NCBI GenBank assembly: GCA_041648665.1
Contig: JBAZOP010000003.1
Location: 69,082 to 133,081, forward strand
Source: a bacterium
GTDB taxonomy: Bacteria; UBA10199; 2-02-FULL-44-16; JAAZCA01
Direction: 5' to 3'
Length of the DNA: 64,000 nucleotides
The notes beneath the pieces are model-generated. The model saw nothing but the letters and a program-made list of their open reading frames with translations, did not search any database and was not told the origin of the DNA. Shown one piece after another: positions 3,254 to 57,970 of the stretch (the first letter of the stretch is position 1; every line of letters starts with the position of its first letter). The position numbers and the translations under genes were made by a program.

Positions 3254-3983
3254 CGCTATGCTCCGCGTTCGGATCCGACGCGCTGAAATGCCGGATCTCG
3301 TCGTTGATCTTCGTGCAGAGCGTCTCGCCCTCGCCCATCGATCCGCGCAGCCACCGCAGGTGGACTTCTCCGTGTGTCGGATGCTTGCCCGTGACCTCTA
3401 CCCTGCCATCGGACAGCTTGCACTTCGTTGCCGGGATGCCCTGGGCGATGCACTCGCGCACGAGCCCTTCGAGCCTGTCCTGCTGGTAGGACGAACGCGG
3501 CGTTCTCGCCCTCGGCTTGGTGTCGCGCTTGCGAGGGGCGTCTGACGGCTCGACGATGTCCTCGTCATCGTCTTCGTGCACAACGAGCGGGGAGGTGTCC
3601 AGCCCGAGCGACTGCGCGCGCATGTGCAGCGAGTGCGCTTCCTCACCGTCTGCCAGCTCGCAGGCGAACACGATGAGAAGCTCCAGCAGTTCCCGGAGCG
3701 ATGTGCGCCAGGACTCCTCGATGCTGCTTCCCAGGGCCTCGAACAGCACCTCGAACTTGCGGAACTTGTCGGGGCCCATGTTCTGCTTGAGAGCCGGGCT
3801 CTGCACCGCCGTCTTGCACATCTGGATCAGCGCGACCGTGCCGCCTGCGATCATCATCGTGGCTGTGGCGCAGGCCTGGGCAGTGACGGCGACCTCCCGC
3901 GACTCCTTGTTCTCTTCGAGAACCGCGATGGCGTACGAAACGAGGCGAAGGTCGAGACTTCGGCGCAACTTGCCTTGCTGCAT
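3246..3983 (-). CDS. hypothetical protein (~245 aa)
   Basis: Protein-like translation. The track start at 4019 is TTG; an ATG at 3983 (MQQGKLRR...) follows an intergenic palindrome. Confidence 0.6.
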   Translation of the reverse strand: MQQGKLRRSLDLRLVSYAIAVLEENKESREVAVTAQACATATMMIAGGTVALIQMCKTAVQSPALKQNMGPDKFRKFEVLFEALGSSIEESWRTSLRELLELLIVFACELADGEEAHSLHMRAQSLGLDTSPLVVHEDDDEDIVEPSDAPRKRDTKPRARTPRSSYQQDRLEGLVRECIAQGIPATKCKLSDGRVEVTGKHPTHGEVHLRWLRGSMGEGETLCTKINDEIRHFSASDPNAEHSGV

Positions 3984-4873: not shown

Positions 4874-5502
4874 GTCTCACCATCCTTGTAGCCCTGCATC
4901 ATCCTCGCCGCGACTTCCCCCGGTGTCTCCGGTTTGACGCTCCAGTCGATGCCCTTCTTCTCCTTCTGCTCCCCCGTAGGCTTCTCAGCCTCGACCTCGG
5001 ATCGGTATTTCGGCTTTTCGGAGGCCATGCCATACACAATGATCGCGTCGCACTGCCCGCATGTCGCGTGGAGGTGAGACCCTTTGTGTTTCCACTTACA
5101 GGTGGCTTCCGTGTAGAAGCGAACCTCGGAGCACTTCACCCCGTTGCACACGTGGCAGAAGAACTCTTCCTTTCCCTTCCACCTCAAGCGCCCCAAATCG
5201 TCCGTTCTTGGATCGGCGGGGGCCGATTCGGACTTCTTCTCAGTATCGTCCCCCACCTTCTCGGCAGGCTCCCGATACGGATGCCCGTTTTTGTCCTTCG
5301 CATCCGGCGCATCCGTGGTCAGGCTCACGATGCGGTTCAGGTACTCCTGGGCCTTCGCCTCCGCGTCGTGCATCCTCTTGCGCAGATCGCGGATGATGCG
5401 GAAGCGATAGACCGCGAGGGCTGAGCCCGCGACGATACCGAGCAGGATCAGAGTTAGCGCTGCCCAAAGTGTCAGCGGATGCGTTACAAGGTAATCAGCC
5501 AT
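4870..5502 (-). CDS. membrane-anchored protein with C-terminal Cys/His cluster
   Basis: N-terminal TM helix (LTLWAALTLILLGIVAGSALAV); CHVCNG...C..H..H..CGQC cluster. Confidence 0.55.
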   Translation of the reverse strand: MADYLVTHPLTLWAALTLILLGIVAGSALAVYRFRIIRDLRKRMHDAEAKAQEYLNRIVSLTTDAPDAKDKNGHPYREPAEKVGDDTEKKSESAPADPRTDDLGRLRWKGKEEFFCHVCNGVKCSEVRFYTEATCKWKHKGSHLHATCGQCDAIIVYGMASEKPKYRSEVEAEKPTGEQKEKKGIDWSVKPETPGEVAARMMQGYKDGET

Positions 5503-17515: not shown

Positions 17516-17785
17516 TCATCCGCAGTGCGACAGCTCGCACCACTCGTTTGGGTTCTCGGGCACCGCGTCGCCGCAGGCCTTCAAGAACGCCTCGATCTGT
17601 CCCTGCTCTTGCACCGTGTACGTGTACCACCAGCCAGGACAGCCCAGCCAGAGCCACTCGCCACGGTGCTCCGTCATGATGTCTGCCGGTTGCTGCCCAG
17701 GCCGCATCGCGTAGGGAATACCCCACAGCGAAAGTGTGTCCGCTTGCCTGAACAGCACCCGGATTCTCGCTAGCTTCTCTAGCAT
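17516..17785 (-). CDS. hypothetical protein (~90 aa)
   Basis: Trimmed to MLEKLARIRV... with SD GGAGGG; a degenerate SAS lies just upstream (~17808-17826). Confidence 0.5.
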   Translation of the reverse strand: MLEKLARIRVLFRQADTLSLWGIPYAMRPGQQPADIMTEHRGEWLWLGCPGWWYTYTVQEQGQIEAFLKACGDAVPENPNEWCELSHCG

Positions 17786-17832
17786 CTTACCCTCCTGTGT
17801 CGCGGGGATGACATTGCTCCTGCTCCCAGTGT

Positions 17833-18249
17833 TCACAGCAGCGCGGGGATAGTTCCTGCCTTCGCTGCTGCGAGAACCGTGTCGATCACTTGCTGCGCCC
17901 ATCCGCCCGGGTAGCCGCGCATGACTTTGATGACGGGCTCGCTGTGGATGAAACGCCAGCCGTCCCAATCGGGCGACCAGAACTTGTCCCATCCGACCTT
18001 GACGTTGAAAGCATGGACCGGCGACCACCCCTCACGGGCGGCGTTGAGAATCGCGGTGCCCAGGTTCAGGTAGAACCCGAATGAGCCACCGTAGTCGCCG
18101 CACTGGAGCGTGACGCGCCAGCATGCGATCGGCACCTCCGCCTCGGGCGGGTAGTTTTTCAGCAGCGTGTCAAAATCCTGCCTTGTGAGGCGCGGCAGCT
18201 TCGGCACCTCGTCCAGCCTCTTGAACTTCTTACTGTCCACTCGAATCAT
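17833..18249 (-). CDS. hypothetical protein (~138 aa)
   Basis: Track ORF 17833..18645 trimmed to MIRVDSKKF... immediately after an SAS. The track's upstream residues (...RCGNHPATSRSKS) are the translated SAS/hairpin. Confidence 0.55.
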   Translation of the reverse strand: MIRVDSKKFKRLDEVPKLPRLTRQDFDTLLKNYPPEAEVPIACWRVTLQCGDYGGSFGFYLNLGTAILNAAREGWSPVHAFNVKVGWDKFWSPDWDGWRFIHSEPVIKVMRGYPGGWAQQVIDTVLAAAKAGTIPALL

Positions 18250-18311
18250 TGACTTGCTCCTGCTTGTGGCGGGATGATTCCCGCAACGGTGCCGCCGGGT
18301 GGCGGCTGTGC
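18250..18311 (-). repeat. intercistronic SAS + two-hairpin element #1
   Basis: Plus strand reads cattgacttgctcctgcttg, then hairpin gcgggatgattcccgc and hairpin gccgccgggtggcggc. Confidence 0.8.
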
Positions 18312-18620
18312 TCAGCGGAAGAACTTCGCCTTCGGGTACATCGCCAGCACCTGATTTCTGGCGTCCTCCCGACTCTTGGCTCGCAGCGTACCGTCGATCG
18401 TGCAGTCGTCGTTGGCAAACCAGTAGATCGGCGTGCCAAACCCGAAGTACGTGCCGTTTTCGTCGTAGGCACCGTCTGCACTCATGCGCACCTTGCGCAG
18501 CGTGATCTTGCCCGAGAAGGTAGGAGGCCCCTCCCATGTTCCGCGGCCCATTGCTGCGCCGCGTTTGGGGTCTCCGCACCATCCCTTGGGGTCGTGCGTC
18601 TTGTAGCTCGGTCTCGACAT
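18312..18620 (-). CDS. hypothetical protein (102 aa)
   Basis: ORF track entry; starts at an SAS. Confidence 0.55.
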   Translation of the reverse strand: MSRPSYKTHDPKGWCGDPKRGAAMGRGTWEGPPTFSGKITLRKVRMSADGAYDENGTYFGFGTPIYWFANDDCTIDGTLRAKSREDARNQVLAMYPKAKFFR

Positions 18621-18686
18621 GACTTGCTCCTGCGTTGTGGGGCATCGTAGCCCCGTTGGTGCCGCAGGCGAACCTGCGGCTTCGGT
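18621..18686 (-). repeat. SAS + two-hairpin element #2
   Basis: SAS variant catgacttgctcctgcgttg; hairpins ggggcatcgtagcccc and gccgcaggcgaacctgcggc. Confidence 0.75.
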
Positions 18687-19088
18687 TCAGATGTCCCTGG
18701 CGGGAAGGTCTGCGATCACGTAGTCGGCCATGCGGTCGTCACCGATGACGCCCGCTACGCGACGGATCGCTCGGATTGTTGCCTCCTCATCGGGCTTGCC
18801 ATGCGTAGCCCCGTTCGCAGGCGGGATGAGGTATCCAGCCTGCGAACCGCGCCAGCCAGCGGGGACGCCCCTCGGTCCGCTCTCCAGCATGCCGTAGACG
18901 AGCCTGCGCCCGTCTCCGGGCTGCCGCACCTTGATCCACCAAACGCGATTGGCTTGGCACTCGTGCTCACCATTGTAGTCGTGAGCGCTCGCGATCACAG
19001 GCCAATCCTTGGCGACGATACGCACAGGGTTTTCGTCCGAAAGCGCGACGACGATCTTCTTTTCCGTGGTGGTGGTCTTTTCTGACAT
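18687..19088 (-). CDS. hypothetical protein (133 aa)
   Basis: ORF track entry; starts at an SAS. Confidence 0.55.
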   Translation of the reverse strand: MSEKTTTTEKKIVVALSDENPVRIVAKDWPVIASAHDYNGEHECQANRVWWIKVRQPGDGRRLVYGMLESGPRGVPAGWRGSQAGYLIPPANGATHGKPDEEATIRAIRRVAGVIGDDRMADYVIADLPARDI

Positions 19089-19153
19089 GACGTACTCCTG
19101 CTTTAGCGTGGCTTGATTGCCACGGTAGTGCCTGGGCCATCCCAGGCTGCTAG
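19089..19153 (-). repeat. SAS + two-hairpin element #3
   Basis: SAS variant catgacgtactcctgcttt; hairpins gtggcttgattgccac and cctgggccatcccagg. Confidence 0.7.
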
Positions 19154-19360
19154 CTACTCCACCTCGGTGTAGACGGTGCGTTTTGTCGCCAGCACCATCG
19201 GCTCACCGCAGCACGTGAACACGTGGTCCTTGGGAGCGTCCCAGTAGTCCCCTGCGTTCGCGCTGTTTTCCGCACCGCACACATTACAGAGAAGGAAGGG
19301 GTGCGGGCCGGGCACACCGATCTGGTTCTTCAGATCCGCGACTGTGACTTTGTTGCTCAT
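19154..19360 (-). CDS. small Cys-rich protein (68 aa)
   Basis: CNVCG...CCGEP motifs; starts at an SAS. Confidence 0.5.
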   Translation of the reverse strand: MSNKVTVADLKNQIGVPGPHPFLLCNVCGAENSANAGDYWDAPKDHVFTCCGEPMVLATKRTVYTEVE

Positions 19361-19435
19361 TGACTTGCTCCTGCTACTCGCGGCGACATTGCCGCAATGG
19401 TGCTACCCGGCCACGACGGGGCTGGTAGCGGTAGG
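19361..19435 (-). repeat. SAS + hairpin element #4
   Basis: cattgacttgctcctgctact; hairpin gcggcgacattgccgc; a second imperfect stem gctacc...ggtagc. Confidence 0.75.
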
Positions 19436-19846
19436 TCAGCGGTGGAACTCCTCGAAGGGGCAGCGTCCGCTGGGAACGGGAGTGTAGCCTGTGCTCACGG
19501 CATCGTCCCAGGTGAGCCCGCAGGTGCCGCACGTCATGGGATCCTTGGCTTCGTCCCCGGGCTTGACCGGCTGCACCGGGAAGTCTGGAGGGACCACCAC
19601 GGTGTGTGTGGCGGGCACTGGCTCTTCGTCCATCTCATCCACGACGGAGATGTCTCGCCCGTCGTTGTCGGTCGGGTAGCTCGGGTAGCAGCGCCCGTTG
19701 AGCGTCTTGCCCCACGTAGTGGGAACGTCGAAGCCCTCTTCGTTCTCGTCCATGAGATCGTTGGCGAGCTTCATCGCCTGCTCTTCTGTCTCGGCTGCCA
19801 CGTCGAAACAGAGCCATGCCTTGGCTTGGCATCGGTATGTTTTCAC
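19436..19846 (-). CDS. hypothetical acidic protein (136 aa)
   Basis: GTG start; C-terminal CGTCG zinc-ribbon-like motif. Confidence 0.55.
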   Translation of the reverse strand: MKTYRCQAKAWLCFDVAAETEEQAMKLANDLMDENEEGFDVPTTWGKTLNGRCYPSYPTDNDGRDISVVDEMDEEPVPATHTVVVPPDFPVQPVKPGDEAKDPMTCGTCGLTWDDAVSTGYTPVPSGRCPFEEFHR

Positions 19847-19906
19847 GTTGTTGCTCCTGCTTTGTGCGGGTCTCCCCGCGTTGGTGCCGCCGTGTGGCGG
19901 CTCGAC
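19847..19906 (-). repeat. SAS + two-hairpin element #5
   Basis: SAS variant cacgttgttgctcctgcttt; the hairpin module gcgggtctccccgc...gccgccgtgtggcggc is identical to that of element #6. Confidence 0.75.
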
Positions 19907-20134
19907 TCATGCCCCTTGCACTCGCTTGGCGAAGTCCTTGAGCGCTTCCTCGTACTTGCTGAAGTAGTGCCCCCACACGTACTCGCTGTGCTCCATTTCG
20001 TGGGTGAGCACTTCGACGTGCGTGACGTACGGCTCGATGCCGTTGCCGATCTTGCGCAGCACGACGCGCGAAGGAAGTTGCTGCCCCTTGATACCGGGAC
20101 TTATGGGGCCTTCGGCCAGATGCCTTTGTTCCAT
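19907..20134 (-). CDS. hypothetical protein (75 aa)
   Basis: ORF track entry; starts at an SAS. Confidence 0.5.
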   Translation of the reverse strand: MEQRHLAEGPISPGIKGQQLPSRVVLRKIGNGIEPYVTHVEVLTHEMEHSEYVWGHYFSKYEEALKDFAKRVQGA

Positions 20135-20196
20135 GACGATTGCTCCTGCTTGGTGCGGGTCTCCCCGCGTTGGTGCCGCCGTGTGGCGGCTGGCAG
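20135..20196 (-). repeat. SAS + two-hairpin element #6
   Basis: catgacgattgctcctgcttg plus the same ~39-nt two-hairpin module as element #5. Confidence 0.75.
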
Positions 20197-21060
20197 CTAC
20201 GCTGCCGCGCTGTTGAGGTGCCCGGGTAGCATCCCCGCAGCGAAGCCCAGGCGGCGGTAGATGTACGCCGTGAGGAGCTTGGTGAGCCGCTCGCGTCCGT
20301 ACTTCGCCCAGTACCCATCCGCTGCCACGCCCTGTTCCCAGAGCGCGTGCAGCACGCTGTGAACCGGCCTCGGCATGTGCCCAGGCCCGCCAGCTTCGTT
20401 GATCGCGTTCATCAGCATGCTGGGCACGTAGTAGGGTTCCTCCATGTGGCCCAGGATGTGGCTCTTGGGGTCACCGTCGAGCACGGGCTTGCCGCTCTTG
20501 TCCTTCATGAGGCAGGCCCAGCAGTCCGCACCCGAAGGCTTGGGAACCTTCAGAGCGAACAGCGCGTCCATGTAGTCGGAGACGAACTTGCGAGCCCGCT
20601 TCTTGAGCTTGATGTCGCTCCGGGTCTTCTTGTCAGTCGCCAGCGGCGCACCCTTGACCTTGCCGGATTCCGTGACGGTCATGCCGTCCGTGAACACGTA
20701 GGCCTTGCCAGGAGACGCCCAGGGGTATTCCCCCGGCTTGTACATCTTGACGTACCAGATCCCGGCATCCGTGTAGATGGCGAGCCCTGCGGGCATCAGC
20801 GCGTTCAGACGACCCTTTGTCGTGGCCGTCTTGAAGCCGCATGACGAGATGATCATGCCGCCCGACTTGCGGAACACGGCGATCTTGCTGCCGAACAAGT
20901 GCAACTCGATGTTGCCCGCGTTCAGGCAGACCGACGTGTTCTCGCTCAGCTTGCGAGTCGTGACCGGCTTGCCGCGACTCATCAGCAGTGTCCCGCCGAT
21001 GACGCGGAAGAAGGTCTCGCCTCGCTTGTACTTCCTTCCTCCGAAATTCAACTTGTCCAT
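20197..21060 (-). CDS. hypothetical protein (~287 aa)
   Basis: Track ORF trimmed to MDKLNFGGRKY..., directly after an SAS (upstream residues ...SPSRSKV are the SAS translation). Confidence 0.6.
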   Translation of the reverse strand: MDKLNFGGRKYKRGETFFRVIGGTLLMSRGKPVTTRKLSENTSVCLNAGNIELHLFGSKIAVFRKSGGMIISSCGFKTATTKGRLNALMPAGLAIYTDAGIWYVKMYKPGEYPWASPGKAYVFTDGMTVTESGKVKGAPLATDKKTRSDIKLKKRARKFVSDYMDALFALKVPKPSGADCWACLMKDKSGKPVLDGDPKSHILGHMEEPYYVPSMLMNAINEAGGPGHMPRPVHSVLHALWEQGVAADGYWAKYGRERLTKLLTAYIYRRLGFAAGMLPGHLNSAAA

Positions 21061-21140
21061 GACTTTGCTCCTGCTTGGTGAGGGGACATCCCCTCGTTGG
21101 TGCCAGCCTAACCATGAACGGTCAGGTGGCAAGAGGCGGG
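21061..21140 (-). repeat. SAS + hairpin element #7 with embedded promoter-like motif
   Basis: catgactttgctcctgcttg; hairpin gaggggacatcccctc; then, on the minus strand, TTGCCA-N16-TAGGCT (plus ~21103-21141). Confidence 0.7.
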
Positions 21141-21141
21141 T
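21103..21141 (-). promoter_or_regulatory. sigma70-like promoter-like motif (TTGCCA...ATGGTTAGGCT)
   Basis: Related to the copy at ~24852-24891 (shared cctaaccat...ggtggcaag.g.ggcg) and to the 34-bp promoter repeat through the ATGGTTA core. Confidence 0.45.
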
Positions 21142-21806
21142 CAGTCGCGAGCCCAGCAACCGGGCAGCGTGACCGTTTCGGGCAGGGACTTCAGGAAGGC
21201 GATCACGTCCTCCGGGACTTCCTCGTACAGCCATTGGCTGCCGTACTTGTATCCACACTCCGGGCACGGCTTGTTCAGCAAGCCCTTGGGATGCTCTTCT
21301 GGGCGCACCCATCCCGTGGCCTTGGTTTCCCTCTTGTGTACCCGGTAAAAGGAAACGTCCAAAGGATGAAGCGTGCTCAAGGGCAGTGACAGAAGGAACC
21401 GCTGTCGCTCTGTCACGGCGGTCGAGCCGTTCTTGACCAGCTCCGCGACGCCGGATTCCACCAGATTGTTCCGCGCAGTGTAATGCTCAGTCTTGAGCAT
21501 GTACTCGATCACTTCTACCTTTTCGGTCACATCCCAATCCTTGCGCTGGTGCTCGCAACCGGCTCGCATGTCGTTCAGGTGCCAGCGGTTCCACACCTCT
21601 GCCAGCTTGGCGACATCAATCCCCGGGAACGGCTGGGTGACGTTGACCAGATCGATCTGACCGCAGCCACCCTTCGCATCACCATTACTCAGCGGTCCTT
21701 CAACGCCGGTCAGAGAGAGGCGCTTTCCGTCCCACTTGATGGTCACGAAGACCTTGCCGCAGTCACCTGTGCCCACCAGCACATGCTTTGTGAATGGTTC
21801 GATCAT
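21141..21806 (-). CDS. hypothetical protein (~221 aa)
   Basis: Trimmed to MIEPFTKHVLVG... after an SAS; contains a CPECG motif. Confidence 0.6.
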   Translation of the reverse strand: MIEPFTKHVLVGTGDCGKVFVTIKWDGKRLSLTGVEGPLSNGDAKGGCGQIDLVNVTQPFPGIDVAKLAEVWNRWHLNDMRAGCEHQRKDWDVTEKVEVIEYMLKTEHYTARNNLVESGVAELVKNGSTAVTERQRFLLSLPLSTLHPLDVSFYRVHKRETKATGWVRPEEHPKGLLNKPCPECGYKYGSQWLYEEVPEDVIAFLKSLPETVTLPGCWARD

Positions 21807-21876
21807 TGACTTGCTCCTGCTTGTGGCGGGATGATTCCCGCAACGGTGAGCACGCCGGGGAGGCGCGCTCGTAAGG
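21807..21876 (-). repeat. SAS + hairpin element #8
   Basis: cattgacttgctcctgcttgtggcgggatgattcccgcaacggtg, a ~45-nt stretch identical to element #1. Confidence 0.8.
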
Positions 21877-22386
21877 TCAAACGGCTGCGCGCTCGCTGCG
21901 AAGCTCATTGACCAGCGCTCGACGGTGAAGATCGGCTTTGTAGTACCGATCACAGTTGTACGTGTTCAGCATGGCTTCGCGGATCCGGTACCACGCTTGC
22001 TCTTCGCTGGCCTCGGAGCGACCCTGCCACGTCCGCTCGACTTCAGGAATCGGCGTGACGTAGGCGTTGACGATCGCCCAGTTGTCTTCTGGCCTGCCGT
22101 TGAACGAGATCGCGGGCGCGAGGCCGAATCCGCAGCCGGGTGCGCCGAGCGATCCCATGGTCTCACACGTGTCAGCGTCCAGGCCGCACTGCTCGACGAA
22201 CTTGTCGAACTGCTTGCGGGTGAGGATGGCGCAATACTTGCGATGCTTCCCGTGAGGGAATACCTCGCTGTAGTCCGCGCTCTCATCGCCCTCTGTGCAT
22301 TGCCACTGCCGAATGCACGGTGGCCTGTACTCCGAGACGCTAGCTCCGCGCGCTATGTCAAACGAGTAGATGACTGAGAACTTCAT
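21877..22386 (-). CDS. hypothetical protein (169 aa)
   Basis: ORF track entry; starts at an SAS. Confidence 0.55.
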   Translation of the reverse strand: MKFSVIYSFDIARGASVSEYRPPCIRQWQCTEGDESADYSEVFPHGKHRKYCAILTRKQFDKFVEQCGLDADTCETMGSLGAPGCGFGLAPAISFNGRPEDNWAIVNAYVTPIPEVERTWQGRSEASEEQAWYRIREAMLNTYNCDRYYKADLHRRALVNELRSERAAV

Positions 22387-22457
22387 TGTGACTTGCTCCT
22401 GCTTGTGCGTGGCACCATGCCACGTTGGCGCGTGCGCTTGCGGCGCACGCTTGGATG
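22387..22457 (-). repeat. SAS + two-hairpin element #9
   Basis: cattgtgacttgctcctgcttg; hairpins cgtggcaccatgccacg and gcgtgcgcttgcggcgcacgc. Confidence 0.75.
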
Positions 22458-22880
22458 CTACGGAAGCAGCATCGCGCAGATGTACAGGTAGCCGTAGCTC
22501 GCGTTCGGAGTCGCCACGAGGCGAACGCCGTTCTCTTCGATCTCAATCAGATCGCGACTGTCAGGGCTCACGTACTTGCTCGCCACGCGCTTGTGCAGCT
22601 TGTCCAGCAGCCCGGAGTCCCCGTTGAGCCTCTTCTGAAGATCCGGCCACCGGGACTGGTCGCCATCGGCCCCTTGCCGATTCGGCACGAGGTCCACGGA
22701 CTGAACCAGCTTCTTGTCCTCGATGATGCGCGTGCGCCCGCCGACACGTTTGCGAATGCGCTGCGTTTGGTAGCTCGACTGAAGGATCGCTCGCGCGCCC
22801 CAGGCGACTGCGCAGTCACGGTCAACGAGCCAGCCGCACCATGCGGGCTTGGGCCTGCTTGCGTTCTTCTCTTCTTCCAT
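22458..22880 (-). CDS. hypothetical protein (~140 aa)
   Basis: Trimmed to MEEEKNASRPKP... after an SAS. Confidence 0.55.
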   Translation of the reverse strand: MEEEKNASRPKPAWCGWLVDRDCAVAWGARAILQSSYQTQRIRKRVGGRTRIIEDKKLVQSVDLVPNRQGADGDQSRWPDLQKRLNGDSGLLDKLHKRVASKYVSPDSRDLIEIEENGVRLVATPNASYGYLYICAMLLP

Positions 22881-22957
22881 TGACTTTGCTCCTGCTTGTG
22901 GTGCGGGCACCATACCCGCCCTAGTGCCTCGCCGCTTCCTCACGGCGAGGCAGGCTT
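22881..22957 (-). repeat. SAS + two-hairpin element #10
   Basis: cattgactttgctcctgcttg; hairpins gcgggcaccatacccgc and gcctcgccgcttcctcacggcgaggc. Confidence 0.75.
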
Positions 22958-23335
22958 CTACTTGCTCCCTTCTCCCTGGCCGACATGTGCCCGCAAGCGC
23001 AGGAGCGTCCACCCTGCGGACTTGCGGCCTGAGTATCGGCGACCATCGATCATGGTCGCAAAGCACTGCACCACGACGGGGCAGTACGCGCCCGGAGGGT
23101 GAATGCGGTAGCGCCCAGTCAGAGCCAGCGGCGCAATGATCTTGTCGCCAGCCCAGTTCTTGAGCACAAACCGCCCGCCCTCCTCGCAGACGTGGCCGAT
23201 GACCACGCCTTGGGTATGATCCACAACCGGGCCGATAGAGGAGAACTGCGTCCCGTTGTGTTCAACGAAACCGATCTCCACCTGCGCTCCGGTCGCGGTC
23301 ACACCGCTTTCGGAATGAAAGGTTGTCTTGTCCAT
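22958..23335 (-). CDS. hypothetical protein (~125 aa)
   Basis: Trimmed to MDKTTFHSESG... after an SAS. Confidence 0.55.
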   Translation of the reverse strand: MDKTTFHSESGVTATGAQVEIGFVEHNGTQFSSIGPVVDHTQGVVIGHVCEEGGRFVLKNWAGDKIIAPLALTGRYRIHPPGAYCPVVVQCFATMIDGRRYSGRKSAGWTLLRLRAHVGQGEGSK

Positions 23336-23410
23336 TCGACTTGCTCCTGCTTGTGCGTGGCACCATGCCACGTTAGCGCCATCGTAGCGAGCTGGCTAGA
23401 TGGCGGGCGG
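23336..23410 (-). repeat. SAS + hairpin element #11
   Basis: cattcgacttgctcctgcttg; hairpin cgtggcaccatgccacg, identical to the hairpin of element #9. Confidence 0.75.
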
Positions 23411-23545
23411 TCAAATCTCCGTGTATGCCACAGACACTTGACGCCCCGGGTATTTTGCCTGGGCCTTCCTCTCCGCGTCGTTGTGCGACTTGGCTCTGAT
23501 CATTCCCACCTCTTCCCCGTCCACGTATACGATATATACCTTCAT
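23411..23545 (-). CDS. small protein (~44 aa), not in the ORF track
   Basis: An SAS-adjacent ATG followed by MKVYIVYVDGEEVGMIRAKSHNDAERKAQAKYPGRQVSVAYTEI; below the track's length cutoff. Confidence 0.4.
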   Translation of the reverse strand: MKVYIVYVDGEEVGMIRAKSHNDAERKAQAKYPGRQVSVAYTEI

Positions 23546-23641
23546 TCGACTTTTGCTCCTGCTATGGTGCGGGACCATGCCCGCCCTGGTGCATGCGCGC
23601 GCGAACGCGCATGCGAGGGATTGTGCTGCTGTGGTGGGATA
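23546..23641 (-). repeat. SAS + two-hairpin element #12
   Basis: SAS variant cattcgacttttgctcctgctatg; hairpin gcgggaccatgcccgc; palindrome gcatgcgcgcgcgaacgcgcatgc. Confidence 0.7.
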
Positions 23642-24802
23642 CTAGGCGGCGAGCGCTTGGGAGAAAATCTTGCCCGCGAACCGTTCCAGGTCGAGCACGT
23701 CGTCGCCGATCTGCGCCGAGCGTGCCTTGCGGGGCGCACCAGCGAGTGCCTTCGCCTCGATGTCCTGGCTGAGAGCCGACACGGCCTGCGCCGCATCGAG
23801 CCAGGAGATGCCCTTGCCGAGCGTGTGAGGCACGCGCGGGTCGGCGCTCTGCACCATTTCGACGACGCGCTTCGCCATGTCCTGGGAGACCTGACCCTTG
23901 AGGATCGTGTTCAAGCGGTCCACGGTCAGTTCCTTCTCACCCGCCGCGTTCAGCGAGTCGAACATCGACTGCCGCCGCTCGGGCAGAAGGAACTGCGATG
24001 TGCTGTCCTTGATCATGCTGATGGTGGCCTCGTGGTCGAGCTTGCGCGTGTCTTGCGACCAGTCCACGTCACGGTCGAGCCGCTGCCCGAGATGCACGCG
24101 GCGGAAGATCCGCTCAGTCGTCATCCCGTTCATGCAGGCCAACCGCAGGAAGAACGCCGTGATGCCCGCTGCCGTGCCGCCCCAGTCCGAATTGCGATAC
24201 TCGATTCCCAGGACGTAGGGGTCGCCGCCGACCATCTGCACCTGCGGAATGACCATCTTGATCGCGAACTGGAGATCCGTGCCGGTCGCTGAGAACGGGA
24301 CCGCGCCCGACTTGTCAGAGACTTCCAGCACGGTTTCGAGCAAGGGGCGGGTGTCGATCGTGTTGTAGCTGGCGGAGAGAACCGCCATGCCCAGTTCCAC
24401 GTCGGGCTTCTTGCGCGCGCGCACGAGGTGAGCCGGGGGCCTGCCGTCCTTGCCGACAAGGTGCGCCCAGTCCGTGTTCAGCACGTTCTGCAAGAGGTCG
24501 CGCGCCCAGTCCGTGTCAGCGTCCAGGCAGGCGTTCGCGAAGTTCGCGTTCACTACCTGACCGATGCCGTACACGTGGCTGAGAGCGTGGTCGTGCAGCA
24601 CGAGCGTATCGTGCTTGTCGAGCACCATCTGGACGTTGTTGTCCTGCGTGACCGCGAACTCCACAAGCTCCGCGGGCGCTTTGCGGTCCACCGGCATCTC
24701 GCTGAACACGCGCGCGACTTGCGCCTTCGCGTTCGGGAGGTTCCGATGGATCACTTCGTCCAGGCGTGCCGCCGCCTGTTCTGCCGAAACATTCTGCATC
24801 AT
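23642..24802 (-). CDS. hypothetical protein (386 aa), possibly a phage/plasmid DUF932-like family
   Basis: Largest protein in the SAS block; the family assignment is tentative. Confidence 0.6.
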   Translation of the reverse strand: MMQNVSAEQAAARLDEVIHRNLPNAKAQVARVFSEMPVDRKAPAELVEFAVTQDNNVQMVLDKHDTLVLHDHALSHVYGIGQVVNANFANACLDADTDWARDLLQNVLNTDWAHLVGKDGRPPAHLVRARKKPDVELGMAVLSASYNTIDTRPLLETVLEVSDKSGAVPFSATGTDLQFAIKMVIPQVQMVGGDPYVLGIEYRNSDWGGTAAGITAFFLRLACMNGMTTERIFRRVHLGQRLDRDVDWSQDTRKLDHEATISMIKDSTSQFLLPERRQSMFDSLNAAGEKELTVDRLNTILKGQVSQDMAKRVVEMVQSADPRVPHTLGKGISWLDAAQAVSALSQDIEAKALAGAPRKARSAQIGDDVLDLERFAGKIFSQALAA

Positions 24803-24904
24803 TTGACTTGCTCCTGCTTTAGTCGGGCCGCGACATGCGACCCGCTTGGTGCCATCCTAACCATTGCTGGCCGGGTGGCAAGGGAGGGCGTGACAGGCAA
24901 TGTC
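24803..24904 (-). repeat. SAS + hairpin element #13 with embedded promoter-like motif
   Basis: catttgacttgctcctgcttt; hairpin cgggccgcgacatgcgacccg; then the TTGCCA-N16-TAGGAT motif on the minus strand. Confidence 0.7.
24852..24891 (-). promoter_or_regulatory. sigma70-like promoter-like motif (TTGCCA...ATGGTTAGGAT)
   Basis: Same family as the copy at ~21103-21141. Confidence 0.45.
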
Positions 24905-25288
24905 CTAGTCCACGATCTCAGTGAGCGAGCACTGGAAAATCTCGTGGATGTAGTCCTTGATCTCGCGGCGGTCGCGTCCGGTGATGCGCAGGACGATTCC
25001 GTGCACGAGCGAAGCCTTGACGATCACGGTGTGCTCGGTCCAGCCATCGTACATGCCAACATCGTTCATGTGGTGGTAGCTGGTATGGATCACCAGCTTC
25101 TCGCCAGTGGACGCATCGAAGTCGAACGTGCATCCGTTGTCGAACCCGGAGCCGTGCGGCAACCTGTTCAGAACGAGCTGCTCAATCGTCTCGCGGTGCT
25201 TGACTCGCCATTCCGCATTGCCCTTCTCGGCACAACGCGCGTAGGCGTCAACGGATGACGCCAGCCTCTTGTAAACTGGCTCTTTCAT
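24905..25288 (-). CDS. hypothetical protein (~127 aa)
   Basis: Trimmed to MKEPVYKRLASS... after an SAS. Confidence 0.55.
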   Translation of the reverse strand: MKEPVYKRLASSVDAYARCAEKGNAEWRVKHRETIEQLVLNRLPHGSGFDNGCTFDFDASTGEKLVIHTSYHHMNDVGMYDGWTEHTVIVKASLVHGIVLRITGRDRREIKDYIHEIFQCSLTEIVD

Positions 25289-25363
25289 TGACTTGTGCTC
25301 CTGCTTTGTGCGGCGGGATTGCCGCATCAGTGCGCGTACCCGTGCGGGCGTACGCGCGTGGGG
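25289..25363 (-). repeat. SAS + two-hairpin element #14
   Basis: SAS variant cattgacttgtgctcctgcttt; hairpin gcggcgggattgccgc; long stem gcgcgtacccgtgcgggcgtacgcgc. Confidence 0.75.
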
Positions 25364-25660
25364 TCAACCGACCCGCTTGGACGCGCCAGCGGTTTCCATC
25401 TCCGCCACCAGTGCGCGCACCGCAGCGTCGCCACCCTTGTCGCTGTAGACGTGGTGCGGACGCCCGATGCGCCCCTCGAAGTCCCACCCTTCGTAGCCGT
25501 CGCGGCGCGCGAAATCGATCCGCGTTCCGTCTGCGCGTTCCAGGTAGAACTCTCCGAAGCCCATGTGATGCAGGGTTCCGAAGCGGTTGCAAGCGTTCAG
25601 GAAGTCGGAATCCCCGACAACCTTCTCGCTTCCATCAATCTGCTTGATCGTGTGAGGCAT
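25364..25660 (-). CDS. hypothetical protein (~98 aa)
   Basis: Trimmed to MPHTIKQIDGSEK... after an SAS. Confidence 0.5.
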   Translation of the reverse strand: MPHTIKQIDGSEKVVGDSDFLNACNRFGTLHHMGFGEFYLERADGTRIDFARRDGYEGWDFEGRIGRPHHVYSDKGGDAAVRALVAEMETAGASKRVG

Positions 25661-25731
25661 TGACTTGTGCTCCTGCTTTGAGAGGCGGCACCATACCGCC
25701 TTCAGTGCGTACGCGGGCGCGTACGCGAGGC
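25661..25731 (-). repeat. SAS + two-hairpin element #15
   Basis: cattgacttgtgctcctgcttt; hairpins ggcggcaccataccgcc and gcgtacgcgggcgcgtacgc. Confidence 0.75.
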
Positions 25732-26079
25732 TCAGTCCTCTGCGGTCTCTGGACGGGAGAACGGAAGCTGGTGACAGCCGCAACCGTGCGGGCAGCACCA
25801 TGCTTCCTTGAAGTCGTTTGTGCAGTTTCGGAGGCGTTCCGCTAGCTCGTAGATTTTGTTCGCCAGGGTTTCGTTGCACAAGCAATCGGCCCCGCAGAGC
25901 GCACGCTGGTAGCGGCGTTCGTCAAAATCAGTCCGAGCGTTCCACCTCGGATGGAAGTAGCCACCGGAGCTTGCTTTCCATTCCGCGTACACCACAAGCA
26001 ACCACTCGCGCGGCTGATCGTGAATGTTCTCGTACAGGTCAGCGTATGCCTCCGGTGCGTGAGACCATTCGCATGTCAT
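25732..26079 (-). CDS. Cys-rich protein (115 aa)
   Basis: CGADCLCNE and CCPHGCGCH clusters; starts at an SAS. Confidence 0.55.
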   Translation of the reverse strand: MTCEWSHAPEAYADLYENIHDQPREWLLVVYAEWKASSGGYFHPRWNARTDFDERRYQRALCGADCLCNETLANKIYELAERLRNCTNDFKEAWCCPHGCGCHQLPFSRPETAED

Positions 26080-26200
26080 GGTTTGCTCCTGCGCTGTGCT
26101 GACGGAATTGTCAGCGGTCGGTACCCGGGAATCGAACCCGGATCTCGCGGCACCAGTTACGGTGTCGCGTGACAGCTTGCTCCTAGGCGCGTCAAACGCA
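26080..26200 (-). repeat. SAS + three-hairpin element #16, including a tRNA T-arm-like hairpin
   Basis: SAS variant catggtttgctcctgcgctg; hairpin gctgacggaattgtcagc; hairpin ccgggaatcgaacccgg, which on the minus strand reads CCGGG-TTCGATT-CCCGG (a T-stem/T-loop); hairpin cgcggcaccagttacggtgtcgcg; then a degenerate SAS, cttgctcctagg. Confidence 0.6.
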
Positions 26201-27370
26201 CCATGCCCGGCGGTCAGATGCCCCGTCAGGCCTTTTGGCTATACCGATTTTGAGGTTGCTGGCGACAGGTTGACTATTGTCGCCAGAGAGCCCCTGCCCA
26301 CGTCTTAGCGTGAGCGGCAGGAGCAGGAGCGGGATCTACTTCCCCCACCACGCTGGTATGCCCAGTCACGGGCGCGTGATGGTTTCGGAACCTGCCTGGA
26401 AGCCGTACGGTCAAAAGCCCCGGGCTATCATGCGGCAGGCTCGCGCAGCTTGGAGCAGCGCGACGATCCAAAATGTCATCCCCGTTGAATTCGATTCACG
26501 TTGCCGGTTCACCTCAGTAGCAGCGGTCCGATTTGGCATGCGTCCCCATGGACAGCCGCGGACTTGCTTGCCCCCCGTCAAAGACAAGGGGCTGAGTTTA
26601 CCCGGTACGCGGGATAGTAGCTCTAGCCGGAACGGAATCTCTCCCGTGGCCCGCGGGTATCAGCCGCAGCGCCCTGCGCGTAGGACGGCTCAGGCGATCT
26701 GAGGGACGGAGCCCAGAGGCGCAGTCACGCCGCACGGTACGCCGTGCGGTTAGGCGAGCACCGCTTGTCCGTTCGCTTGTCGGTTCCGCTTGCTAGTCTT
26801 GCTTCAGGCGTTCACGGATCCAGGAGTCCACGCGAGACCTTGAGCCTTACCGAGCCGCCAAAAGCGACCCCTATACGCGCCGGTCCGAACGGAAACCTGC
26901 CCGGTTCCCTGGTGAGGGGAGGACTTGCGCGCCCCAAATGCTGGCGCAGCAGCGGTCACATGGGCCGGGTAGACCCGTGGCAGCCATCCGCTCGACTAGC
27001 GCGCGTTGCCGCGTCGCAATCGGGGCAGATGTTGCCCTATTGCTTGCAGGGTACGCCCCGCAAGGCTGGCGTGGTCCGGTCAAGGGCACCGGCTAGGCTC
27101 ACCCCACAACAGGCAGGCTCGCCAGGGGAGCCGCCCCGCCAACCGGGGCCGCGCTCCACCCTGTTGTTGTCCTGCACCCCACCCCCTCCCCTCCTATACG
27201 TGGCGATAGTGTTTCGCTATCAGCGCGTACAGGGGGTACATCGTGGCGATAGTGCACTGGTATAGTGTATCGTATTGCAGCGTCACGCGGTGTATTGTGA
27301 GGTGGTGTGATGTATCGCTGGAGCTTGCTGTCCAGCTTGGGAACGGAGCGCGCAGGGAGCGCGTGCGACG
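26201..27370. other. ~1.2 kb non-coding hub (candidate regulatory/ori region or ncRNA)
   Basis: Only R-rich junk ORFs are present. Contains a 9-bp-stem palindrome (ctggcgaca...tgtcgccag, ~26262-26290), CGCTTG x3 repeats (~26770-26800) and AT-richer iteron-like repeats (cgtggcgatagtg x2, GTGTAT x3, ATAGTG x3) at ~27190-27320. Confidence 0.5.
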
Positions 27371-27823
27371 CTACCGCGTGCGGCGACGGTGCGAACGGCT
27401 ACGGTTTGGCGTGGCCTTGCGCCGGGCGGCGAACCAGATGCCTGCTACGGCCAGCGCGACGGCTACCGCAACGTAGACCTTGCCGTACGGTTCGCAGCCG
27501 GAACCGTAAAGAGCGGGCAGGGCCAGCAGGGCGGGGCACTGCTTGCCGTGCGATGGCGCAGGTTGCGCGGGCTTCGGGGGCTGCACAGACCCCCACGGCA
27601 CGCATCTGCTCAGCTTTGGATCCCACCTCTGATCTGGTGCGAGGCAACCTCCCTTGCCGCCGTTCGCACCGCACGCGTCCATGAAGGCGTTCAGCGCAGA
27701 GCCCTTTGTCATGTCGAAGGGGATGCTCAGCGCCTGGGCCTGCTGCGCGCAGTCAACAGCCATCGTCGTGGCGGCATCCGCTGGAAGCGCGGCCATCTGC
27801 TTGTAGAAGTCTTCGTAGGTCAT
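27371..27823 (-). CDS. hypothetical protein with C-terminal TM anchor (150 aa)
   Basis: VYVAVAVALAVAGIWFAA, then a basic tail. Confidence 0.5.
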   Translation of the reverse strand: MTYEDFYKQMAALPADAATTMAVDCAQQAQALSIPFDMTKGSALNAFMDACGANGGKGGCLAPDQRWDPKLSRCVPWGSVQPPKPAQPAPSHGKQCPALLALPALYGSGCEPYGKVYVAVAVALAVAGIWFAARRKATPNRSRSHRRRTR

Positions 27824-32587: not shown

Positions 32588-32790
32588 TTTACTCGGCTCT
32601 GGTGCCGCCCTCGGGCATGGAATCACAACGGTATCAGGCCGCTTGGCGCATCGCAAGGGGAAGGGCGAACCACAAAAGACGAACGCCCCACCGGACCATC
32701 CGGCAGGGCGCACGCCTTTCGCGTAACTCAGCTCGGCCAAGATGCCCACTGCGCTACCCGATGTCAACGGCCACGGTGTAGAATGCTCCC

Positions 32791-33537
32791 ATGCGCAACG
32801 GGACCGGCTGCATCCACGACCCGCCCACCGTCCGCGGCTCGCACTCGAAAGAGCAGGTGTTCGGGACAGCCCTGCTCAACGAGCCCCCGGACATCCTGGA
32901 CCTGACCCTCCTGATCGACAGCATCCGGCAGCAGAACCGGCAGCCTACTTGCGTTGGCTTCGGCACAGGTCAAGCCATCCAGGTGGTGGCCAAGCAGAAC
33001 GGATGCCCGCACATCGCCGTGCCCTCCGCTCGGCACCTGTTTGCCCAAGCCTGCGGCATCGCTCACGACCCGGGGCTGGACGGCACGACCATCGGGGCCT
33101 GCATCGAGGGAGCGCAGCTGGGCGGCATCATCGACGAGAATCTCCTGCCGTACGACCCGGCGAAGGTCTACGACGAGATCGACCTGGACGTGCTCCAGAT
33201 GGGGCTCGTGCGCATCGGCCTGAAGGCGCACCGGCTCATCGAGTTCGGCGAAGACGTGGACAGGGCTGTGAAGCTCGCCGTAGCGTCAGGCAAGGGCGTC
33301 GTGGGCGGCATCGACGTGGACGATCTGTTCTTGGAGTGGCCCGCGGGAGAGGTCTACCCGGGCATCACGGGCGAGTACGCGGGCGGGCACGCCATGAACT
33401 TGCTCGATTTTCCGCTGGGACTGCCCCGCTGGGTTGGCAGCTACGGCGCGAATTGGGCAGAGGGCGGGCTCATCACAACGGCGTGGGATGTCGTGAGGAA
33501 GGCGAGGTCGCTGTGGATCATCGACTACGTGCCGTAG
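32791..33537 (+). CDS. hypothetical protein (248 aa); weak papain-like Q..C pattern
   Basis: Plus-strand gene in an otherwise minus-strand block; NRQPTCVGFGTGQA. Confidence 0.5.
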   Translation: MRNGTGCIHDPPTVRGSHSKEQVFGTALLNEPPDILDLTLLIDSIRQQNRQPTCVGFGTGQAIQVVAKQNGCPHIAVPSARHLFAQACGIAHDPGLDGTTIGACIEGAQLGGIIDENLLPYDPAKVYDEIDLDVLQMGLVRIGLKAHRLIEFGEDVDRAVKLAVASGKGVVGGIDVDDLFLEWPAGEVYPGITGEYAGGHAMNLLDFPLGLPRWVGSYGANWAEGGLITTAWDVVRKARSLWIIDYVP

Positions 33538-49863: not shown

Positions 49864-50082
49864 GTGAGAAGGACGAGGCTTGAGATCGCCGTCCAGCAGT
49901 TCGAGCAGATCGCGAAGCGCATCCAGATCGAGAACAGCGACACCGGAACCACAGCGTACGGCATCCGGATCGACCGGGGCCTGCTCTCGGTGCGCGTGTT
50001 CGTGAACGGCGAGCTTCGCGAGGTGATTGACCTACCAACCAGGGACGAGTACCCTACGATGTCGTACGGGAACCGCGTCTGA
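49864..50082 (+). CDS. small hypothetical protein (start uncertain, GTG/TTG)
   Basis: Only the tail of ORF 49567..50082 is protein-like. Confidence 0.3.
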   Translation: MRRTRLEIAVQQFEQIAKRIQIENSDTGTTAYGIRIDRGLLSVRVFVNGELREVIDLPTRDEYPTMSYGNRV

Positions 50083-50110
50083 CCCCACTCGCTGATAAGG
50101 AGCTGGCAAC

Positions 50111-52011: not shown

Positions 52012-52014
52012 GAT

Positions 52015-52752: not shown

Positions 52753-52764
52753 GGATACCGCCTG

Positions 52765-55764: not shown

Positions 55765-55772
55765 GCGAAGAA

Positions 55773-56205: not shown

Positions 56206-56242
56206 GCGTGCACCGCCCGGAGGATCTTCGGGGTGAGCCCGA

Positions 56243-57941: not shown

Positions 57942-57970
57942 GGCGTCTGGTAGAGAACGGTAGCATCTCG

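Follow-up and report, generated by a model that had tools for sequence, protein, structure and literature searches.

A 64,000-nucleotide stretch of contig JBAZOP010000003.1 (hereafter, the window) is part of a mobile element of an uncultivated bacterial lineage, which we class broadly as phage- or plasmid-like. It contains an array of small genes in which nearly every gap repeats the same pair of hairpins, followed by a long conserved sequence at the next start codon. The locus raises the question of what such a repeated module does: whether it acts in DNA or in the transcript, and whether it serves the expression of the genes or their exchange. Our analysis suggests that the module probably supplies each gene with its own expression signal and also marks the points at which genes are swapped between related elements.

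The module and its hairpins

Sixteen successive genes, encoding proteins of 44-386 amino acids, run on the minus strand from position 26079 to 17833, and the same module lies upstream of each of them (all statements on the array refer to the minus strand, in window coordinates). The genes start at 26079, 25660, 25288, 24802, 23545, 23335, 22880, 22386, 21806, 21060, 20134, 19846, 19360, 19088, 18620 and 18249. Each module comprises, in this order, the stop codon of the preceding gene, a GC-rich hairpin (hairpin 2, hp2), an A/C-rich linker of ~6 nt, a second hairpin (hairpin 1, hp1), the sequence AAGCAGGAGCAA and the start codon, and all 16 copies keep this anatomy and lie in gene sense. The sequence AAGCAGGAGCAA is invariant and lies 3-9 nt upstream of the start in 16/16 genes, whose start codons are ATG (15/16) or GTG (1/16), compared with ATG at 13 of 21 neighbouring genes. 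We call the conserved core the start-associated sequence (SAS); its commonest form is (C)ACAAGCAGGAGCAAGTCA. When the units are anchored on GGAG, the preceding G, C and A and the A two bases after it are invariant in all 16, and further A, A, C and A around it are kept in 13-15 of the 16 copies. The AGGAG of the array, located 7-10 nt upstream of the AUG, is in itself a strong Shine-Dalgarno (SD) sequence. Its flanks (AAGC-AGGAG-CAA) have no possibility of pairing with the standard 16S rRNA tail.

The motif and the structure are confined to this block to a striking degree. The 64 kb contain 22 copies of GCAGGAGCA, compared with an expectation of 1.2; 0/100 shuffles reach this count, and 17 of the 22 copies are on the minus strand between 17.8 and 26.1 kb. 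Allowing up to three mismatches, the SAS 16-mer gives 8 matches in the window, where 0.57 would be expected. A covariance model of the linker, hp1 and SAS, built from 19 hp1+SAS units of three lineages, retrieved exactly the 16 units in the 64 kb (E 4e-16 to 6e-5), the further matches being two weak SAS-only ones at 15405 and 17812. The 21 other called genes, just upstream on the same contig, have ordinary, varied SDs without the SAS and start with ATG (13) or GTG (8); their spacers are mostly -14 to +41 nt long (one of 147 nt), compared with 60-102 nt in the array. The count of SAS copies outside the block, which the original prediction had proposed as a check, and the covariance-model search both place the motif and its structure in this block within the 64 kb, and the motif is not a general ribosome-binding-site (RBS) context of the other genes of the element.

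Each of the 15 intercistronic spacers is predicted to form two hairpins (z-scores of -2.0 to -5.8 relative to dinucleotide-shuffled sequences), and the leader unit before gene 1 has a fold z-score of -1.9. MAFFT combined with RNAalifold on the raw units missed hp1, as the loop lengths differ, and a hand-given structure and the covariance model were used instead. In a MAFFT alignment that was not fitted to the structure, hp1 was 94.7% paired, with compensatory changes at 4/6 pairs and a covariation of 0.44 versus 0.15 in shuffled alignments (reached by 0/500 shuffles), and sliding the pairing as a control lowered it to 33-59%. The model-fitted alignment of 40 distinct copies, which is biased towards the structure, gave 93% pairing, compensatory changes at 5/6 pairs and a covariation of 0.375 versus 0.112 (again reached by 0/500 shuffles). 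A bipartite version of hp2 (hp2B) precedes the fourth and tenth array genes, g4 and g10, in three lineages; it consists of an outer stem, a bulge and an inner stem capped by GCAA, GCAG or GCGA, with a UUA bulge, and is 93% paired, with three compensatory pairs and a G.U pair conserved in the mRNA sense. Hairpins are also retained between orthologous spacers despite sequence change. The prediction that the stems are selected for structure is therefore supported by the covariation, with compensatory pairs, of both hp1 and hp2B.

GNRA and UNCG loops stabilise RNA hairpins specifically. Among 31 unique tetraloop hairpins in 46 distinct spacers, such loops occur 17 times in the mRNA sense versus once in the antisense (binomial 7e-5), and tiles of coding sequence have them in 5 of 47 tetraloops (Fisher 3e-5 versus the spacers). 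Since these loops are mostly in the mRNA sense, the hairpins appear to act in the transcript.

The repeated intercistronic elements that had been predicted are thus real, with 16 copies of the module and its hairpins on the minus strand, although some of their details had to be changed. A linker of ~6 nt is present, but in place of the proposed ~CACCAAC or ACCGTT its consensus is the degenerate RCYAMY, of which ACCAAC is merely the commonest form. The hairpins had been described as variable, which holds for hp2, whereas hp1 is semi-conserved, with a G-Y-G-G-S stem and loops that are mostly AAUNNN or UGG. The block limits of 18.2-26.2 kb hold for the 16 units, but a degenerate continuation extends past 18.2 kb (17203-17142, 16673-16613, and an SAS with a mini open reading frame (mini-ORF) at 17823-17779).

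The 15 intercistronic spacers are 60-102 nt long. The GC-rich hp2 has 6-11 bp, lies ~5-30 nt past the stop codon and differs in sequence in nearly every spacer; the linker fits RCYAMY (ACCAAC, ACCGTT, ACTGAA and others); and hp1, of 5-8 bp, is followed by 3-7 A/C-rich nt and then the core. The units are as follows, with hairpins written as stem-loop-stem or as the two arms.

26077..26200, minus strand: leader-proximal unit before gene 1, with an SAS-like core lacking a start codon (26184-26176), a hairpin, a T-arm-like hairpin, hp1 GCTGAC/GTCAGC and SAS GCAGGAGCAAACC-ATG (37.5 bits)
25661..25731, minus strand: spacer 1, 71 nt, with hp2 GCGTACGC/GCGTACGC, linker ACTGAA, hp1 GGCGGTA-TGG-TGCCGCC and SAS
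25289..25363, minus strand: spacer 2, 75 nt, with hp2, linker ACTGAT, hp1 GCGGC-AATCCC-GCCGC and SAS (58.4 bits)
24803..24904, minus strand: spacer 3, upstream of g4, 102 nt, with a small stop-proximal hairpin, bipartite hp2B (CTTGCCACC...ATGGTTAGGATGGCA), hp1 CGGGTCGC-ATGTC-GCGGCCCG and SAS
23546..23641, minus strand: spacer 4, 96 nt, with hp2 GCATGCGCG-TTCG-CGCGCGCATGC (loop scored as U(UCGC)G in the tetraloop test), linker ACCAGG, hp1 and SAS
23336..23410, minus strand: spacer 5, 75 nt, with hp2, linker GCTAAC, hp1 CGTGGCA-TGG-TGCCACG and SAS
22881..22957, minus strand: spacer 6, 77 nt, with an 11-bp hp2, hp1 GCGGGTA-TGG-TGCCCGC and SAS
22387..22457, minus strand: spacer 7, 71 nt, with hp2, linker GCCAAC, and hp1 and SAS 98% identical to spacer 5 over 42 nt (repeat family D1)
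21807..21876, minus strand: spacer 8, 70 nt, with hp2, linker ACCGTT, hp1 GCGGGA-ATCA-TCCCGC and SAS (repeat families D3 and D5)
21061..21140, minus strand: spacer 9, upstream of g10, 80 nt, with bipartite hp2B, linker CCAAC, hp1 GAGGGG-ATGT-CCCCTC and SAS
20135..20196, minus strand: spacer 10, 62 nt, with hp2 GCCGCC-ACAC-GGCGGC, linker ACCAAC, hp1 GCGGG-GAGA-CCCGC and SAS
19847..19906, minus strand: spacer 11, 60 nt, 98% identical to spacer 10 over 52 nt (family D8); precedes the sole GTG start
19361..19435, minus strand: spacer 12, 75 nt, with hp2, linker ACCATT, hp1 GCGGC-AATGTC-GCCGC and SAS (55.8 bits)
19089..19153, minus strand: spacer 13, 65 nt, with hp2, linker ACTACC, hp1 GTGGC-AATCAA-GCCAC and the variant SAS GCAGGAGTACGTC
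18621..18686, minus strand: spacer 14, 66 nt, with hp2 GCCGCAGG-TTCG-CCTGCGGC, linker ACCAAC, hp1 GGGGC-TACGAT-GCCCC and SAS
18250..18311, minus strand: spacer 15, 62 nt, with hp2 GCCGCC-ACCC-GGCGGC, linker ACCGTT, hp1 GCGGGA-ATCA-TCCCGC and SAS
17779..17832, minus strand: array end, with a hairpin-less SAS core GGGAGCAGGAGCAATG heading an 11-codon mini-ORF at 17814-17779 (12.7 bits)
17203-17142 and 16673-16613, minus strand: two degenerate units with a common 45-nt repeat and an hp2B-like hairpin CCCTTGCGCCGCCCGGTGCGATGGTTATG, each ending in GAAGGAGCAAGC(T/G)ATG, without hp1 (family D10)

Relatives and known systems

Among 5.8 billion proteins, g4 has only seven cluster-level relatives. In the four related lineages with readable contigs, the g4 proteins compare with that of the window as follows.

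L014/L021: g4 identity 74%
L024-L027: g4 identity 76%
L008: g4 identity 59%, GC 55%
L011: g4 identity 55%, GC 54%

A more distant contig (L012), in which g4 is 45% identical, also carries the motif. The order of stop codon, hp2, linker, hp1, core and ATG is common to all four readable related lineages, and the lineages with this architecture have g4 proteins 45-76% identical and GC contents of 54-62%. The core context reads AGCAGGAGCAA(A)GTCA(C)ATG in L021 and L024, and ACGAAAGGCAGGAGCAA(A)TG in L008 and L011, where GGAG is just 3-4 nt from the ATG. The part of the core common to the lineages, GCAGGAGCAA, is retained though the distance to the AUG shifts from 8-9 to 3-4 nt. In L002 and L015, the g4 homologue sits in a tightly packed phage replication module with neither spacers nor the motif, so that the hairpin-SAS module goes with the array rather than with g4. 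The g4 homologue of these two contigs lies directly upstream of a DnaB-type helicase gene.

A nucleotide search of 50,697 phage records gave no match, IMG/VR searched by the motif and by g4 gave none, and neither did GTDB genomes searched by g4. A pattern scan for hp1-SAS in GTDB and IMG/VR returned single chance-like matches, except for the IMG/VR contig L045, which has one convincing unit and SAS-like spacers. The module family is rare and so far known from metagenomes alone. In L001 (Logan contig SRR8542065_92312), L014 and L024-L027, the assemblies stop inside the array, presumably because repeated modules break short-read assembly, and the array lengths in the relatives are lower bounds. 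L008 contains two near-identical spacers of 150-170 nt (1643-1790 and 2430-2600), beginning with TAGCAGGAGCTAGAC, in which an SAS-like core right after the stop codon pairs with a downstream GCTCCTGC to form a long hairpin that sequesters the SAS; a normal hp1-SAS comes next.

We compared gene order among the relatives by BLAST of all array proteins. A backbone of g4, win6, g10 and win15, in this order, is conserved, with many unrelated genes in between. The gene win1, upstream of g4 in the window, corresponds to gene 8 of L021, downstream of g4; win11, which follows g10 in the window, is gene 3 of L024, before g10; gene 5 of L008 is win14 at a different distance from g4; and gene 1 of L008 is gene 3 of L021. 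At orthologous junctions, a simple hp2 goes with the upstream gene, and hp2B and hp1 go with the downstream gene. The 3' end of g10 together with the GCCGCC..GGCGGC hairpin (hp2 of spacer 10) is common to the window, L021 and L024, whereas hp1 and the next gene differ. Within the window, several units are near-identical over 42-67 nt (families D1, D3, D5 and D8), and the spacer pairs 8/15 and 5/7 are identical from linker to start (~46 nt in spacers 8 and 15) with unlike hp2 hairpins. As the identity breaks at the linker, the unit of exchange would be roughly [linker-hp1-SAS-ORF-hp2]. These comparisons suggest that the modules behave as cassette boundaries, a role that had been among those proposed, and one in keeping with gene content and order that differ between the modules of relatives.

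The arrangement had been likened to the SAS/ESAS elements of Cluster K mycobacteriophages. The Cluster K SAS contains AGGAG and lies 3-7 bp before mostly ATG starts, in one orientation, at 11-19 non-structural genes per genome; its flanks are likewise unable to pair with 16S rRNA, and the gene families differ between relatives (PMC3203893). Its function was still unverified in 2025 (PMC12699233). The array core similarly contains AGGAG, is longer than an SD, occurs in 16 copies in one orientation and ends 3-9 nt before a start that is ATG in 15/16 cases. It differs in its consensus (GGGATAGGAGCCC in Cluster K versus AAGCAGGAGCAA here), in its origin from another, uncultivated lineage with no evidence of an actinobacterial host, and in forming one contiguous array between nearly all genes, each copy being tied to covarying hairpins. 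The 13-bp Cluster K consensus GGGATAGGAGCCC, searched with up to two mismatches, has three matches in the window (two mismatches) versus 1.4 expected, all of which are on the plus strand, outside the array and away from its gene starts. With the consensus absent and the element unrelated, the array SAS is not a Cluster K member. The ESAS consists of two 17-bp imperfect inverted-repeat half-sites with a conserved consensus, departures from which do not support RNA pairing, and its authors favoured DNA-binding sites (PMC3203893). The array likewise has an inverted repeat directly upstream of the SAS, but its stems of 5-8 bp vary with pairing kept (93-95%; compensatory changes at 4-5/6 pairs) and carry RNA-type loops. 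The analogy with Cluster K thus stands for the SAS part, namely an invariant AGGAG sequence in one orientation before mostly ATG starts of non-structural genes, and fails for the ESAS part, where the stems vary with pairing kept, and for the Cluster K consensus, which is absent.

Promoter-early stem-loops (PeSLs) are mobile regulatory cassettes of T4-type phages, with a strong sigma-70-like promoter, an AT-rich upstream region and a stem-loop that is a demonstrated terminator (PMC2839356, PMC4122927). The array resembles them as a composite repeat of ~100 nt that spans the interval between the upstream stop and the downstream start with its SD, includes a stable GC stem-loop and precedes ORFans in plastic regions. 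To judge from the aligned relatives, the copies also seem to mark points of insertion, deletion or replacement, with genes switching sides of g4 and g10 while the spacers are conserved. The array differs from PeSLs in having no promoter consensus, AT-rich tract or U-run, in its two hairpins of fixed geometry, and in that its invariant part is an RBS. A scan of 11 kb for sigma-70-like promoters gave 3 matches versus 1.6 expected, of which two span the SAS on the opposite strand, and the spacers are GC-rich. An intrinsic terminator scan found no site in any spacer, and the longest T run in the 15 spacers is 2; the earlier view that the hairpins lack U-tracts and are not intrinsic terminators agrees with this result. 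The PeSL cassette, which the original prediction had not considered, is a closer precedent than Cluster K for the behaviour of the array.

Other known systems fit less well. The array is not CRISPR-like, as had been stated, since the start-to-start distances of ~210-1470 nt are gene lengths and the intervals are ORFs of varied length with high GC at third codon positions. At the gathering score, Rfam has no match in the 64 kb, and at E <= 10 it has four chance-level matches (E 1.3-8.1) in 17.7-27.4 kb; ARAGORN finds no tRNA in the window. The T4 RegB/S1 sites are comparable as an intergenic extended SD (strong sites of 11 nt) common to a gene class on early polycistronic mRNAs (PMC3014915). 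The RegB consensus (GGAGRAYARAA) is not matched, as GGAG is followed by CAAGTCA in the array, with C at the R position and A at the Y position. In phage T7, early genes are separated by hairpins where the transcript is cut into stable cistron-sized mRNAs (RNase III sites). The array hairpins are shorter than typical RNase III substrates, and no nuclease gene was recognised. Taken together, the array has a ribosome-site part like that of the Cluster K SAS and behaves as cassettes in the manner of the T4-type PeSLs, and belongs to neither class.

Possible roles of the module

We put at about even odds that the module, taken as a whole, works at the RNA level as an intercistronic expression and insulation module that doubles as a recombination joint, with less confidence in insulation, in a trans-acting factor and in cleavage at the linker, each taken individually. 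Ribosomes would start independently on each cistron from the strong SD. The two stable hairpins would bracket each cistron, with hp1 fixed 3-7 nt before the SAS, and could keep the A/C-rich ribosome-binding region from pairing with neighbouring gene sequence. Cutting of the transcript in the single-stranded linker, if it occurs, would leave cistron-sized RNAs whose 3' and 5' ends the hairpins might also protect. The SD flanks cannot pair with the 16S tail and are conserved across lineages with differing AUG distance, and might therefore serve as a shared recognition site through which a single trans-acting factor raises or lowers the expression of all these genes. Activator binding and RNase processing, two further roles that had been proposed, may also come into play. 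The strong T4 RegB/S1 sites GG*AGRAYARAA in early intergenic regions are a precedent for a class-specific extended SD read by a phage factor (PMC3014915). The 25-50 nt that recur between all genes would provide homology for the insertion, loss and movement of genes, and PeSL copies have been proposed to supply homology for cassette exchange (PMC2839356).

Several observations weigh against this RNA-level interpretation. In the window alone, GNRA/UNCG tetraloops number 4/13 in the sense versus 1 in the antisense, so that the strand inference comes mainly from the relatives. Internal G.U versus A.C mismatches have no strand bias (22 versus 28; ~10 versus 8 in long helices), and the A/C-rich flanks inflate antisense G.U counts. 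The unpaired probability of the SD region (-16..+3) is 0.54 in the array versus 0.43 at neighbouring genes (p = 0.01), a small gain in accessibility that shuffling the hairpin region lowers merely to 0.50; insulation by the hairpins, if real, would be modest. The linker is without the U-rich character of typical RNase E sites, and terminator hairpins also bear GNRA/UUCG loops, which would allow hp2 a role during transcription itself. Neither an RNA-binding protein nor a nuclease emerged as a candidate, the array proteins and scanned neighbours being without an informative family match and RegB not having been specifically searched for.

A more specific version of this interpretation, to which we give little credence, takes the modules as the cis half of an RNA-level gene-cassette system, whose factor recognises hp1 and GCAGGAGCAA or the hp2-ACY end. 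Such a factor might come from the element or the host and act as an endoribonuclease, as an activator or repressor that binds RNA, or as a tRNA-processing enzyme attracted by tRNA-like features, and would cut or license each cistron to yield hairpin-capped monocistronic mRNAs, like the tRNA punctuation of mitochondrial transcripts. The T-arm-like leader hairpin with compensatory changes (see below) and the ACCA that often follows hp2 are in favour of such punctuation, but the general rule among the relatives is ACY, not ACCA, and Rfam and ARAGORN see no tRNA. If true, a gene recombined between two modules would be automatically expressed and co-regulated.

The hairpins and the core might instead be read as DNA. 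In one such explanation, which we consider unlikely, the spacers are PeSL-like transcription cassettes, with hp2 as an attenuator or terminator and the linker, hp1 and pre-SAS sequence as a promoter for a polymerase or sigma factor that is possibly encoded by the element; genes would then be transcribed one by one, which is the situation in the hyperplastic regions of T4-type phages. Sequence conservation in the linker and hp1 permits such a reading, and GNRA/UUCG loops are typical of terminator hairpins too. A composite repeat of ~60-100 nt ending in an SD and a start, placed upstream of ORFans in a plastic region with modular shuffling, is also what a PeSL-like cassette would look like (PMC2839356). 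However, no spacer contains a sigma-70-like -35/-10 pair, with no enrichment over shuffles, or a TANNNT-like -10 element; the -35 would have to lie in hp2, which is not conserved and has no U-run after it; sigma-54-like GG-N10-GC occurs in 7/46 spacers, in none strictly; and a duplex promoter gives hp1 no reason to covary. Covariation of the hp1 arms, which leaves no single recognisable half-site, also counts against an operator array, in which an element-encoded protein would bind the double-stranded SAS, perhaps with the hp1 inverted repeat, to silence or activate transcription of the block, like the Cluster A mycobacteriophage stoperators or the proposed reading of the ESAS. The asymmetric invariant sequence of 12-19 bp, in one orientation and in short intergenic gaps, is stoperator-like (PMC3203893), the leaders of the window and L021 have a core without a start codon, and the hairpins are almost purely Watson-Crick with no G.U excess. 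Nevertheless, the strand-specific GNRA/UNCG signature argues for RNA, the core contains the SD and sits at the SD position, and the small flanking genes yielded no helix-turn-helix (HTH) or other DNA-binding domain; we regard operators as improbable.

The recurrence of the module could also be a matter of copying. Under concerted evolution, the spacers would be ordinary strong RBSs with post-stop hairpins and no dedicated function, kept identical by recent duplication, gene conversion and recombination. Near-identity over 42-67 nt fits conversion or duplication, SAS sequences resemble each other more closely inside a lineage than across lineages, and the gain in SD accessibility is small. Yet GCAGGAGCAA, the hp1 geometry and the RCYAMY linker persist across lineages whose proteins are 45-76% identical and whose GC contents are 8 points apart, the core is kept where the AUG distance changed from 8-9 to 3-4 nt, and hp1 stems that vary and stay paired point to selection for pairing, not copying; this explanation seems to us a shade less likely than the PeSL-like one. 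Least likely of all, and very improbable, is that the spacers are site-specific recombination sites, integron attC-like or other single-stranded DNA hairpins recognised by a recombinase that captures and reorders promoterless cassettes. A same-orientation array of small unrelated ORFs with imperfect palindromes of 60-100 nt, the gene order shuffled between relatives and the tyrosine-recombinase domain in ORF 2-3397 would suit this mechanism, were it not that RYYYAAC ... GTTRRRY boxes occur in 0/16 spacers, that the spacers form two distinct hairpins each and not a single long stem with bulges, that the loops are of RNA type, that the recombinase gene is >14 kb off and not shown to be IntI, and that the conserved part is an RBS.

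If the module is an RNA-level expression unit, it bears on several matters. Phage SAS have been known since 2011 without an established function, and their coupling here to covarying hairpins makes an RNA-level mechanism testable. The array would amount to a set of natural insulated, swappable expression units (3' hairpin, linker, 5' hairpin and fixed RBS) around unrelated ORFans, and may explain how accessory genes, possibly early or anti-defence ones, are exchanged between mobile elements without loss of expression. The concept of mobile regulatory cassettes, put forward for the PeSLs of T4-type phages, would then also cover an uncultivated GC-rich element with a signal of another kind, and the modules could serve as context-independent RBS parts for GC-rich hosts.

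Flanks of the array and the surrounding element

Upstream of gene 1, the leader contains an SAS-like core AGGAGCAAGCTGTC (26184-26171, minus), ~100 nt before the gene and with no ATG after it; the L021 counterpart is GCAGGAGCAAGGCTGTC at ~5075-5095. An N-terminal extension of gene 1 from a CTG after this core was rejected, as the L021 frame hits a stop and the peptide is not conserved. The T-arm-like hairpin CCGGGTTCGATTCCCGG (26141-26125, minus), with a canonical T-loop, lies ~45-70 nt upstream of the first array gene. Its relatives are at ~5118-5134 in L021 and ~6186-6202 in L014, and the stem is compensated with the loop kept (CCGGG-TTCGATT-CCCGG in the window versus GGCAG-TTCGACT-CTGCC in L021/L014). 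ARAGORN and Rfam call no tRNA at this hairpin, and there is no matching acceptor 5' strand; a tRNA gene or attP was rejected for want of a cloverleaf, an Rfam/ARAGORN call or an adjacent integrase. The hairpin might mimic a tRNA, be a remnant or belong to an att site. A tandem GCTCCTGCTCCTGC in the leader (26330-26316, minus) is exactly complementary, twice, to the SAS core GCAGGAGC. Anti-SAS pairing by it was rejected, as it is absent from the L021 leader and not conserved, and the complementarity is probably due to chance. Between the array and two divergent small genes (26960-27265 and 27243-27476, plus) lie ~880 nt (26080-26960) with no convincing gene, corresponding to a gap of ~1.16 kb in L021 (4040-5203). 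This gap is likely to be the control region of the array; no promoter was identified in it.

At the other end, the mini-ORF behind the hairpin-less SAS encodes MSSPRHRRVRC, and its stop codon overlaps the ATG (17785) of the following gene, for which AGGAGGG is a separate SD; the mini-ORF may be a coupling or attenuating upstream ORF. The sequence GAGCAGGAGCA(A/G)TGTCATCCCCGCGAC of the array tail is conserved in L024 (5738-5800). Downstream of the array, a 45-nt direct repeat (17199-17155 and 16669-16625; 93% identical) follows two stop codons; its fold is like that of hp2B, with the stop codon taken into the outer stem, and it shares the motif GATGGTTATG.

The gene content of the window includes a tyrosine-recombinase domain, a SNF2-type helicase, a ParB-like protein, DUF2786/DUF7168, a DNA methyltransferase, an HNH protein, a transposase and an SLT lytic transglycosylase; no recognisable virion genes were found in the window. 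The array proteins are ORFans except g4 and g10, and scans of them with Pfam, PHROGs and NCBIfam gave nothing useful beyond the resemblances of these two. g10 (20197-21060) has a Kyano_Gp96 domain. g4 (23642-24802, minus) has no Pfam match by sequence, and its predicted structure (pLDDT 67) matches only DUF932/TIGR03299 'phage/plasmid-like' proteins, of unassigned function, in BFVD (E 2e-15 to 1e-7). Among phage records, 226 contain a distant relative of g4, in each case with a hypothetical annotation, and the matches to Mycobacterium phages are partial and distant (<38% identity).

The ORF at 2-3397 (minus) runs off the window end, has at least 1132 amino acids and carries a Phage_integrase domain at residues ~346-562 only, which makes it unusually large for a tyrosine recombinase. 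The region 50000-58000 has a GC content of 0.57-0.60 versus ~0.62-0.65 elsewhere and contains genes for a CmcI-type methyltransferase, a UDP-glucose-dehydrogenase-like protein, a thioredoxin-like protein and a 553-amino-acid transposase (56243-57937); it may be an inserted island. The proteins of a divergent gene pair at 32749-32791 have no family match. TAGAAT lies 6 nt before the ATG of the 248-amino-acid plus-strand gene (32791), which may be leaderless, and GTTGACA is on the other strand; the pair resembles a repressor-type switch.

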